Assembly (NCBI GenBank): GCA_001464935.1
Contig: LNEL01000064.1
Location: 75,567-139,566, forward strand
Length of the DNA: 64,000 nucleotides
Direction of reading: 5' to 3'
DNA from: Gammaproteobacteria bacterium Ga0077536
GTDB lineage: Bacteria > Pseudomonadota > Gammaproteobacteria > Ga0077536
Shown one piece after another: positions 40,675-42,488 of this stretch. Each line of letters starts with the position of its first letter. Position 1 is the first letter of the stretch. The notes under the pieces were generated by a model. It did no database searches, was not told the origin of the DNA, and saw nothing but the letters and a program-made list of their open reading frames with translations. A program made the position numbers and the translations under genes.

Positions 40675-40692
40675 TATTCCCGAACAGGAATA
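40675..40692 (+). promoter_or_regulatory. 18-bp palindrome TATTCC-N6-GGAATA, candidate HipB-type operator
   Basis: Perfect inverted repeat about 75 bp upstream of the HTH gene, in an AT-rich leader. Resembles the E. coli hipBA operator consensus TATCC-N8-GGATA. Confidence 0.4.
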
Positions 40693-40766
40693 GAACTGGG
40701 TTAACCTCGCACTAGAAGCAGAAAACATTCGTTCGGGTCGAACTGGTCGTTGATTGAGCAAACAGG

Positions 40767-41033
40767 ATGACTGACACCTCATCAGGCGTTTCATCGAGCT
40801 TGGCGCTGATAGGCCGCGCCGTGCGCCGGCAGCGGCGCGTGCTCGGGCTGACCCAGGCGGAACTGGCCGGCATTTGCGGCGTGGGCGTGCGCTTCGTCTC
40901 CGAGCTCGAGGCAGGCAAGCCCGGCCTCGAAATCGGGCGTGCCGTGCACGTCATGCAGCATCTGGGGCTGGAACTGCGGGTGTACTTCCGTGATGGCTCC
41001 GCGAGCACCGATGAAAACCCTGTCCCTGCTTGA
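40767..41033 (+). CDS. hipB: XRE-family helix-turn-helix protein (HipB-like antitoxin)
   Basis: 88 aa with a canonical HTH (LGLTQAELAGICGVGVRFVSELEAGK). Overlaps the following HipA-like gene by 23 nt. Confidence 0.7.
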   Translation: MTDTSSGVSSSLALIGRAVRRQRRVLGLTQAELAGICGVGVRFVSELEAGKPGLEIGRAVHVMQHLGLELRVYFRDGSASTDENPVPA

Positions 41034-42246
41034 GGTGGCCCATGACGGCCAGCGCATCGGTCATCTCATCTGCGAGGTGCCGGACGTCTGGCTGTTTCGT
41101 CCCGCTGCGGCGGCCGGCCCCGTGCCACGGTGGTCGGCGCTCGCGGGCGAGGCCAACATGGCCGTGAATCGGCGGGCATGGTTTCGGGGCCTGCTGCCGG
41201 ACCCACTCGAATGTGCCCGCCTGGCTCAGCGCCTCGGCATTTCCGTTGGCAACGAGTTCGCTGTGCTCGGACTGCGCGGCGAAGACTGTGCCGGCGCACT
41301 CGGGTTCGCGCGACCAGGCACGGCAACGGGCGGCGCACCGGGCGGCCTGGCACCGGGCGTCGGACTGGATGAGGGCGCGCTGGCTGCGCTGGCACGCGGC
41401 GAGGCGCTGGCCGCGGTCGACAGCCTGCCCTGGTTGCTGCCGGGCGATCCGGGACAGTTTCCCTGCAGCCTCGTCGACGGGCGGCTGACGGTCGCAGCGG
41501 GCACCGCAGACTGGATTGCTCGCACCGGCCGGCAGGGACTGCCGGAAGCGGTCGAGAATGAAGCCCTGTGCCTGCGCGTGGCGGCGGCCCTGGGCCTGCC
41601 GGTGCCGGCAGCGGAACTGCGGCGCGGGGCTGTCCCAGTGCTGTTGACGCGCCGGGTCGACAGGCATCTGCAGCCGGACCGGGTGCATCGGCGCCATCTC
41701 GAGGATTTCTGTCAGCTCTCAGGACTGCACCCGGAGCAGGCTTACGAGCGCGAAGGAGGACTCGCAGTCCTCGACTGCGCGGCACTCATCCGGCGCTTCA
41801 GCGTTGCCCCCGCGCTCGACATCCGTGCACTGCTGGGCTGGCTGGTGTTGTGCTTTCTGGCCGGCATCGGTCAGGCGCATGCCCGCACGCTGTGTCTGGT
41901 CGAGACGGCGCGCGGCCCGCGCCTGGCCATCGTCGGCGGCTTGCTCAGCACCCACGTGTACCCCGGGCTCAGTGCACGAATGGCGATGTACATCGGTCGC
42001 GAAGACCGGCCGGACTGGATCAGGCTCGCGCGCTGGCGCGAGATGGCCGAAGAGCTGGGGGTCGGGACACGCTACCTGCTGGAGATGCTGCGCCAGATGG
42101 CGACTAGGGTGCCGCTGCTGGCCGAGGCGGCCGCCGCGGAACTCGAACTCGGCGAGACGACGCTGAAAGTGGTCCCGCGGATCCTTAAACTGATCGGGAA
42201 CCGCGCGCGGCAGAGCCTCATTGCGCTCGAAGCGGAGCGGGAATGA
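41011..42246 (+). CDS. hipA: HipA-family protein, predicted kinase-dead
   Basis: 411 aa from the internal ATG (MKTLSLLEVAHDGQRIG). HipA landmarks retained (GEDCAGAL, ENEALCLRVAAALGLPV, EDFCQLSG, LLSTHVYPG..RMAMYIG), but the catalytic loop and Mg-binding Asp are replaced (see finding). Start coordinate taken from the ORF-track frame. Confidence 0.72.
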   Translation: MKTLSLLEVAHDGQRIGHLICEVPDVWLFRPAAAAGPVPRWSALAGEANMAVNRRAWFRGLLPDPLECARLAQRLGISVGNEFAVLGLRGEDCAGALGFARPGTATGGAPGGLAPGVGLDEGALAALARGEALAAVDSLPWLLPGDPGQFPCSLVDGRLTVAAGTADWIARTGRQGLPEAVENEALCLRVAAALGLPVPAAELRRGAVPVLLTRRVDRHLQPDRVHRRHLEDFCQLSGLHPEQAYEREGGLAVLDCAALIRRFSVAPALDIRALLGWLVLCFLAGIGQAHARTLCLVETARGPRLAIVGGLLSTHVYPGLSARMAMYIGREDRPDWIRLARWREMAEELGVGTRYLLEMLRQMATRVPLLAEAAAAELELGETTLKVVPRILKLIGNRARQSLIALEAERE

Positions 42247-42275
42247 CTGCCAGGCCGACGTGACGGAGATGACGC

Positions 42276-42488
42276 ATGAACAACCGGGACCGGCTGATCG
42301 AACAGATGATTGCGCACGACATCGACCGTCACGAACTCGCCGCGATGCTGCGCGTCGATCGGGACACGGTCGATCGCTGGTTGCTGACGCGCGAATCCTC
42401 CCGCTGGATCGAGGTGCCCGACATGGCCATCGAACTGCTCACGTACAAGATTGCGGACCGCCGACATGACCGACCTGACGGCCAGTGA
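42276..42488 (+). CDS. small Cro/YdaS-like putative DNA-binding protein
   Basis: 70 aa with a GGAG RBS, high GC3 codon usage and an HTH-like segment (HELAAMLRVDRDTVDRWL). 29 nt downstream of hipA. Confidence 0.45.
   Translation: MNNRDRLIEQMIAHDIDRHELAAMLRVDRDTVDRWLLTRESSRWIEVPDMAIELLTYKIADRRHDRPDGQ

Follow-up and report, generated by a model that had tools for sequence, protein, structure and literature searches.

A predicted HipA pseudokinase maintained with a HipB-like partner at a syntenic chromosomal locus of an uncultured gammaproteobacterial lineage

HipA is the founding persistence toxin, and the closest described counterparts of the locus reported here are the HipBA toxin-antitoxin (TA) systems of Escherichia coli K-12 (HipA/HipB) and Shewanella oneidensis (SO0706/SO0705), in which hipB, encoding an XRE-type protein, precedes and overlaps hipA. 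Engineered kinase-dead HipA mutants (D309Q in E. coli and Klebsiella pneumoniae, D306Q in S. oneidensis) lack toxicity but retain binding to HipB and HipB:DNA (PMC11717353, PMC4150777); D309Q, which abolishes toxicity in characterised HipAs, is the standard laboratory form (PMC11717353). A broader set of Hip families, comprising HipA, HipT, HipH/YjjJ and HipE, F, G, I, J, L and M, was delineated by Gerdes, Baerentsen and Brodersen (2021). In the PMC8262856 alignments for HipA, HipT, HipH, HipG/M/I/J and HipL, four core kinase motifs are reported to be retained, and a term search of that paper found no passage on a Hip family with a degenerate active site; the Hip kinase families are reported as active in those portions of the literature that were examined. 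Here we describe a hipB-hipA-like locus in a stretch of 64,000 nucleotides (nt) from Gammaproteobacteria bacterium Ga0077536 (contig LNEL01000064.1, positions 75,567 to 139,566; hereafter the window). Its HipA homologue, designated HipA* (gene hipA*), keeps the HipA fold and an upstream hipB and appears, together with a whole clade of relatives, to have lost the kinase active site.

The 411-amino-acid (aa) open reading frame (ORF) is a genuine full-length HipA homologue. Its product matches Pfam HipA_C at 100.9 bits (cutoff 30.5), Couple_hipA at 29.6 bits (cutoff 22.5) and TIGR03071 at 28.5 bits (cutoff 27.8), and phmmer searches of the PDB aligned it with the HipA proteins of S. oneidensis (8e-15) and E. 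coli (5e-10). An AlphaFold2 (AF2) model built with 30 homologues has a predicted local distance difference test score (pLDDT) of 90.5 and a predicted template-modelling score (pTM) of 0.91. With Foldseek this model matched S. oneidensis HipA (4pu5) at E 1.5e-22 and a template-modelling score (TM) of 0.80 and the E. coli HipA structures at TM 0.79-0.81, and it superposes on the solved HipA structures over its whole length (TM 0.78-0.81). HipA* therefore has the same Couple_hipA N-subdomain and HipA_C core architecture as the HipBA kinases. An initial annotation, made from the DNA letters, had proposed that the ORF is collinear with E. coli HipA and that a structure prediction should be inspected; the collinearity was borne out by the PDB searches, for S. 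oneidensis HipA as well, and the prediction returned the full HipA fold. A Gly/Ala/Pro-rich linker (41310-41380, HipA* residues about 101-120) separates the N-subdomain from the core and looks disordered in the model, where pLDDT falls below 50 at residues 109-112.

We compared the active site of HipA* with the E. coli HipA reference sequence, which is identical to residues 1-440 of PDB 2wiu_A, and with about 40 canonical relatives in MAFFT alignments. All seven functional positions are replaced (residue roles according to PMC11717353 and PMC10627512, the latter for the Gly-rich loop): the autophosphorylation site S150 by L142, K157 of the Gly-rich loop by Q149, the ATP-binding K181 (which appears as 'L181' in PMC11717353) by R171, the catalytic D309 by Q288, K313 of the catalytic loop by R292, and the Mg-binding N314 and D332 by T293 and G310, respectively. 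In the Gly-rich loop, where HipA* LPGDPGQ aligns with E. coli VAGAQEK, A152 and Q155 are also changed to Pro and E156 to Gly, leaving G153 as the sole survivor. H311 of the catalytic loop is retained as H290. In the PDB alignments Q288 falls on the engineered Gln of 4yg7 and 3fbr. The window protein thus naturally has the Gln of the kinase-dead mutants, from which it differs by six further functional substitutions, by residues specific to its clade and by selection across about 40 species.

These comparisons also refine the motifs given in the initial annotation. Its replaced catalytic loop, GIGQAHARTLC, stands, with the span corrected from 41863-41892 to 41863-41895; the HipA motif set against it, GNCDDHLKNFS, is not that of E. 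coli, which has GATDGHAKNFS, and resembles a family consensus. The Mg-coordinating Asp is indeed Gly in IVGGLLST, although the quoted SPAYDLLST is again consensus-like and E. coli has TPFYDIISA. The AGAQEK loop is likewise replaced, but its true counterpart is PGDPGQ, two residues earlier than the proposed DPGQFP, and the conclusion is unchanged.

JGI and NCBI records label members of this group 'serine/threonine-protein kinase HipA' or 'HipA family toxin', in line with the idea that alignment has misplaced the catalytic residues of HipA* and that the protein is a normal HipA kinase toxin. We regard this as very improbable: phmmer against the PDB, MAFFT and the structural match all put Q, T and G at D309, N314 and D332, and the register is anchored by the flanking motifs xLxG...HA...L and RLAxxxxLLST. 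In a column-by-column comparison of degenerate and canonical proteins, the positions conserved only in active proteins are concentrated in the Gly-rich and catalytic loops and at the Mg site. The same comparison revealed no newly conserved acidic residue in the kinase core; the only acidic residue conserved in the degenerate clade alone is E409 in the C-terminal helix, and a relocated catalytic Asp was rejected for this reason. The absence of D309 and D332 equivalents is hence confirmed by profile, multiple and structural alignments, and no intact catalytic Asp or Lys emerged elsewhere in the protein. As judged from its sequence, HipA* is without the residues needed for phosphotransfer.

The loss is shared by a large set of related proteins. 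A search of 5.8 billion proteins returned 62 HipA* relatives. The 36 closest ones (38-70% identity) all lack N314 and the S150/AGAQEK loop; D309 is lost in all but P0016, and D332 is mostly lost. The relatives from P0037 downward are all canonical (GNADAHGKN, PFYDL, LAGAQNK). Degenerate sequences also ranked top in a profile search of 1.84 billion representative proteins, in which a few partly degenerate ones were found too.

A locus scan with one genome per GTDB species yielded 63 loci, all from metagenome-assembled genomes (MAGs); the active site is degenerate in 42 of them and canonical in 21. The neighbourhood order is lhr, glxK, hipB, hipA*, (orf70), (FHA-protein gene), membrane ORF, avtA, where orf70 encodes a small helix-turn-helix (HTH) protein. 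At least one neighbourhood marker is kept in 41 of the 42 degenerate loci and in none of the 21 canonical ones. In the sole non-syntenic degenerate locus (L022), a PitA/PhoU_div pair lies upstream, and the contig stops shortly beyond hipA*. Canonical relatives were found in Cycloclasticus, Methylophaga, Wenzhouxiangella, Smithellaceae, Bryobacteraceae and an Elusimicrobia MAG, a spread over many taxa that is expected for a mobile TA module, while the MAGs of the degenerate set bear the label Gammaproteobacteria or Pseudomonadota and derive from lakes, groundwater and comparable sources. No match was found in a search for plasmid relatives of hipA*, and its G+C content (0.69-0.75) equals that of the surrounding genome; a mobile-element origin of the present locus was rejected on these two grounds. 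In contrast to the taxonomically scattered canonical modules, the hipA* locus is, on this comparative evidence, fixed at one syntenic chromosomal site and vertically inherited. Several species labels in the set do not fit the gene content or neighbours of the records ('Klebsiella pneumoniae' for L012, L025 and L032, 'Hydrogenophaga intermedia' for L010 and 'Enterobacteriaceae' for L022) and are probably taxonomic mislabels of MAGs.

In a crude neighbour-joining tree, built without support values, the degenerate proteins form a single clade nested among canonical relatives. At its base lie P0160 (D309E) and P0149, in which D309A is the only change and K181, N314 and D332 are kept. The next branch is a large group in which K181, K157 and K313 persist and D309, N314 and D332 are gone (motifs LPGEFDKLPV, GxGxxHxKQL and PFFGLWSTHVYP), and last are two derived subclades with K181R, one of which holds the window. 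P0149 (locus L077) already occupies the same syntenic site: lhr and hipB lie upstream, an orf70 homologue follows, and there is an FHA-protein gene close by. Within the clade, position 309 is Q, H, G, A, L, Y, T, V or S and position 314 is Q, T, S, H, D or R; position 332 is Gly in 86% of the members and N, E or D in one subclade. In the 20 canonical relatives compared, these three positions are 100% D, N and D. Such variation at otherwise invariant catalytic positions is expected if catalysis was lost first and the metal and nucleotide constraint relaxed afterwards. The survey of homologues suggested in the initial annotation therefore points to a deep conserved clade rather than to lineage-specific decay.

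Every catalytic residue is gone, and between the window and locus L001 HipA* is 70% and HipB 73% identical, compared with 77-86% for the other genes. Both observations would suit the explanation that hipA* is a decaying remnant of a dead TA module without any function. We consider this extremely unlikely. Across 42 species-level genomes, with identities as low as 32%, the hipA* ORF is intact at about 405-433 aa; the AF2 model is confident, and the clade has invariant residues of its own. The ratios of nonsynonymous to synonymous substitutions (dN/dS) were calculated by the Nei-Gojobori method for the closest unsaturated pairs. For L013/L016 they were 0.157 for hipA*, 0.171 for glxK and 0.127 for avtA; for L025/L027, 0.066, 0.139 and 0.132, respectively, and 0.166 for hipB; for L038/L039, 0.069, 0.056 and 0.075, and 0.038 for hipB; and for L034/L035, 0.013, 0.165 and 0.053, and 0.000 for hipB. 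The window and L001 copies of hipA* give dN 0.24 and dS 1.25, with dS near saturation. Since its dN/dS resembles that of glxK and avtA, hipA* is constrained as strongly as its enzyme neighbours. Pseudogene decay was rejected on the dN/dS values (0.013-0.157, purifying selection as strong as on housekeeping neighbours), on ORF integrity over 42 species and on the clade-specific invariant residues, which contradicts the recent-pseudogene status that the initial annotation had named as grounds for abandoning its proposal. Taken with the alignments, the conserved clade and the retained hipB and operator, this supports a pseudokinase rather than a Ser/Thr kinase toxin.

The partner gene is retained as well. 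A hipB gene is present 5' of hipA* wherever upstream sequence exists, with an overlap of 4-23 nt. In the window, the overlapping XRE-type HTH gene noticed at the outset proved real: its best-scoring NCBIfam family is TIGR03070 (couple_hipB, HipB/Y4mF; 61.4 bits against a cutoff of 71.65), whose whole model is covered, and its HTH_3 match exceeds the Pfam cutoff. The perfect leader palindrome TATTCC-N6-GGAATA, also recognised then, is beyond chance: four copies with at most two mismatches were found in the whole window against 0.17 expected, and the exact copy is unique. Its core, ATTCC-N6-GGAAT, lies 87-95 nt 5' of hipB in many orthologous loci, and matches with at most one mismatch are nearly restricted to the hipB upstream region in about 430 kb of locus sequence. 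The canonical relatives (L051-L072) have two operators, ATTCCCG-N2-CGGGAAT, at about -92 and -42 from hipB and approximately 50 bp apart. As the core is confined to the region 5' of hipB and is shared with the canonical relatives, the palindrome is taken to be an inherited HipB-type operator. In most degenerate loci, and in the window too, only the distal copy persists, so that one operator in the window corresponds to two in the closest canonical relatives and to four in E. coli and S. oneidensis (PMC4150777); the N6 spacing is the same as in S. oneidensis GTGTA-N6-TACAC (PMC4150777). At the proximal operator position the window has a different short palindrome, GTTCG-N3-CGAAC (40731-40743). 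A one-mismatch operator copy, TATTCCCGGCAAGGAACA, was found at 44281-44298, about 110 nt downstream of avtA; it was rejected as a regulatory target, being not conserved in orthologous loci, and may be a chance or strain-specific occurrence.

Set against the usual features of a TA module, the locus gives a mixed picture. The layout is present, i.e., adjacent co-oriented genes for an HTH antitoxin and a toxin homologue with an upstream palindromic operator. The active site required for HipA toxicity appears to be absent, and the mobile, scattered distribution typical of TA modules, though not strictly defining them, is not seen, 41 of the 42 degenerate loci being syntenic. The initial view of an otherwise canonical TA locus thus holds for gene layout and operator and fails for the fixed syntenic site and vertical inheritance. 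The locus is probably a TA pair turned to a non-toxic, regulatory use.

It can be hypothesized that, in an uncultured gammaproteobacterial lineage, a hipBA ancestor was fixed at a site downstream of lhr, where the catalytic Asp would have been lost first, followed by the Mg-binding Asn and Asp and Gly-rich-loop residues and, in the subclade of the window, by the ATP-binding Lys. Selection would have maintained three things: the fold of HipA including the N-terminal subdomain, the HipB partner coupled to it in translation, and a single operator of the ancestral pair. HipA* would bind the HipB dimer to form a HipA*2-HipB2 complex on the ATTCC-N6-GGAAT operator, and this complex would autoregulate the hipB-hipA*-orf70 operon. 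HipA* might then act as a non-toxic co-repressor and HipB stabiliser that phosphorylates nothing and perhaps senses a signal through its ancestral substrate-binding surface or nucleotide pocket. The formation of the complex is suggested by the retained, overlapping hipB, by the operator at a fixed distance and by 54 positions conserved in both the degenerate and the canonical sets, which include the N-subdomain LLP, NE, RxDR, ExxxQ, GG and EDRPDW. In S. oneidensis, kinase-dead HipA D306Q binds HipB:DNA with a dissociation constant (KD) of 300 nM, the HipA C-terminal domain contacts the DNA backbone, and HipB is destabilised without HipA (PMC4150777). On balance we lean, by a little, towards HipA* being a non-catalytic HipB partner in an operator-bound, autoregulating and possibly sensing complex.

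Several observations weigh against this proposal. About half of the orthologous loci have no operator recognisable at one mismatch or fewer, and the second (-42) operator is mostly lost in the degenerate clade. By hand alignment, the DNA-contacting residues R380, R383 and R384 of S. oneidensis HipA are only partly matched, by Q, T and R. A bare co-repressor role poorly explains such strong selection on some 410 residues over this depth, and leaves the clade-specific invariant W27, R247, H315 and R400/Q401 unexplained. Finally, nucleotide binding without catalysis is possible in the basal members that keep K181, K157 and K313.

Two other explanations were considered. The residues conserved in the degenerate clade only are W27, P144, L211, R247, G287, G310, H315, R400, Q401 and E409. 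Invariant or near-invariant residues of the clade at the old active site (G285-x-G287, H290, R247 and P144-G145), H315 in STHVYP, which is Ala in canonical relatives, the three Lys of the basal members, with which nucleotide binding is conceivable there, and selection as strong as on enzymes would all be consistent with a kinase-like fold that has acquired a new activity, as a non-canonical enzyme or as a ligand or nucleotide sensor in a remodelled pocket. SelO and SidJ are such non-canonical enzymes within the protein-kinase-like superfamily. However, variation within the clade is unrestricted at the three classical positions for catalysis and metal binding, the subclade of the window is without all three Lys, and the core has gained no conserved acidic residue, so we rate a new activity as quite improbable.

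The 54 shared non-catalytic positions would also fit a protein that sequesters or modulates a target through its ancestral substrate surface, or that serves as a decoy or anti-addiction buffer against incoming HipBA modules. An aminoacyl-tRNA synthetase is a conceivable target, by analogy with GltX for HipA and TrpS for HipT. Pseudokinases elsewhere are often scaffolds or competitors, and an FHA-domain protein is encoded as a conserved convergent neighbour in 30 loci. This explanation is unlikely, if slightly less so than a new activity: a target is not identifiable from sequence, a scan of the same genomes by a single peptide pattern revealed no active paralogue belonging to this subfamily, the subclade of the window lacks the FHA gene, and anti-addiction would require nothing more than HipB.

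A C-terminal helix, RARQxxIALxAE (HipA* residues 394-409), is conserved within the degenerate clade only; R400 and Q401 are invariant and L394, A399, L406 and E409 near-invariant. It may form a clade-specific interaction surface with DNA, HipB or orf70.

With respect to the known Hip families, HipA* shares the superfamily, the long HipA-type architecture and the upstream HipB, whereas three of the motifs (Gly-rich loop, catalytic and Mg-binding) are missing from its clade. Compared with HipBA, the window protein has other residues throughout at the positions for catalysis, Mg binding and ATP binding and at the autophosphorylation Ser, and an extra small HTH gene lies downstream. HipA* resembles pseudokinases in general in having a conserved fold that is kept under selection after loss of the catalytic Asp, the Mg residues and the ATP Lys; it differs from them in deriving from a TA toxin and in keeping its antitoxin/repressor partner. 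No description of a natural HipA pseudokinase was found in the full-text literature searched, which agrees with the initial suggestion of an uncharacterised TA derivative. That antitoxins such as HipB can be exapted as transcription factors is discussed in a review (PMC8987985), in which a term search found neither a mention of HipA nor the word 'inactivated'. We tentatively raise, as a possibility that falls short of an even chance, that HipA* is the lineage-wide and vertically inherited pseudokinase subunit of a new regulatory module composed of HipB, HipA* and the small HTH protein, with its remodelled nucleotide and substrate pocket serving as a sensor or even a new catalytic site.

If true, it would represent the first natural case in which a toxin of a TA family has become a pseudokinase, with stepwise intermediates (loss of D309, then of Mg-site residues, then of ATP-Lys residues) surviving in living genomes. 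The clade as such indicates that a TA toxin can be kept for a non-toxic role and provides a natural intermediate series for the change from kinase to pseudokinase. The annotations 'serine/threonine-protein kinase HipA' and 'HipA family toxin' appear to be functionally wrong here, which bears on surveys of TA modules and persistence in metagenomes. HipA* also isolates the non-catalytic functions of HipA (HipB binding, the operator complex and target binding), which could be studied without toxicity.

Table 1. Positions of the hipB-hipA* locus and neighbouring genes in the window
Feature	Position	Strand	Remark
Lhr-type helicase (lhr)	34754-39166		
Glycerate kinase (glxK)	39326-40486		
Operator-like perfect palindrome TATTCCCGAACAGGAATA (TATTCC-N6-GGAATA)	40675-40692		91 nt 5' of hipB start
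hipB-like XRE-family HTH gene, 88 aa	40767-41033	+	HTH_3, 24 bits
hipA*, HipA homologue with degenerate active site, 411 aa	41011-42246	+	23-nt overlap with hipB
Degenerate Gly-rich (ATP) loop, residues L142-Q149	41434-41457	+	Alignments
R171 at ATP-binding K181 position	41521-41523	+	Alignments
Degenerate catalytic loop GIGQAHARTLC	41863-41895	+	PDB and multiple alignments
Q288 codon (D309 position)	41872-41874	+	
G309-G310 at Y331-D332 (Mg-binding Asp) position	41935-41940	+	Alignments
orf70, small HTH protein, 70 aa	42276-42488	+	29 nt after hipA* stop; GGAG 5' of ATG
Convergent hydrophobic ORF, 113 aa, about three helices	42509-42850	-	
Valine-pyruvate transaminase AvtA	42925-44175		NCBIfam NF006964, 497 bits

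The small Cro-like ORF pointed out downstream of hipA* (orf70) is real and belongs to a conserved, so far unannotated family. Its 83 homologous clusters have the invariant motifs MNNRD and VPDMAIELL, and its AF2 model (pLDDT 88.1) consists of four helices. The best fold matches are of the XRE/Cro type (C-proteins, Aca1, HigA), with TM 0.6-0.7 but E-values of at least 0.3. Of the 39 non-duplicate pseudokinase loci scored, 13 carry the gene after hipA*, as does the window; the basal L077 is one of the 13. Several subclades lack it at this place, and no canonical hipA is followed by it. In the window, orf70 is probably co-transcribed with hipB-hipA*. Relatives 49-60% identical to the window copy were found in fimV-truA-trpF-(trpB)-[orf]-(trpA)-accD-folC-dedD-cvpA-purF clusters of other Gammaproteobacteria (L073-L076, L078, L079), between trpB and trpA or, where these two are absent, between trpF and accD. 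Since the family is located elsewhere in other genomes, orf70 is not a standard TA component and its link with hipA* is lineage-specific. A connection of orf70 with tryptophan, considered from the trpB-[orf]-trpA contexts, was weakened by L079, in which the ORF lies between trpF and accD without trpB and trpA.

In 30 degenerate loci a convergent gene just downstream of hipA*(-orf70) encodes a protein of about 310-340 aa with a C-terminal FHA (phospho-Thr-binding) domain (L005, at 6516-7541 on the minus strand, L007, L017, L023, L029-L046, L070 and the basal L077, among others). The proximity of an FHA protein to one derived from a kinase is suggestive; the gene is absent from the window's subclade and from the sister subclade. 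The convergent membrane ORF does follow the module, as the initial annotation had it, but is probably not a partner of HipA*: it adjoins avtA in most loci, even where the FHA-protein gene separates it from hipA*. It was rejected as a module component for this reason and is probably only a neighbour paired with avtA. No significant Pfam, NCBIfam or PADLOC family was found for it. PADLOC gave no match for HipA* or orf70 either, and for HipB only generic HTH matches; the idea that the locus is part of a defence system was rejected on this result.

In the leader of the locus, a simple scan found no sigma-70-like promoter, and no Rfam family was detected anywhere in the window, which led to the rejection of an RNA element in the leader. 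The interval from the glycerate kinase gene to the hipB operator contains two copies of TTGACGTAAACGTCA, a sequence that is itself palindromic (TGACGT-AAACGTCA): the first at 40489-40503 and the second, 87% identical, 76 nt downstream at 40565-40579.

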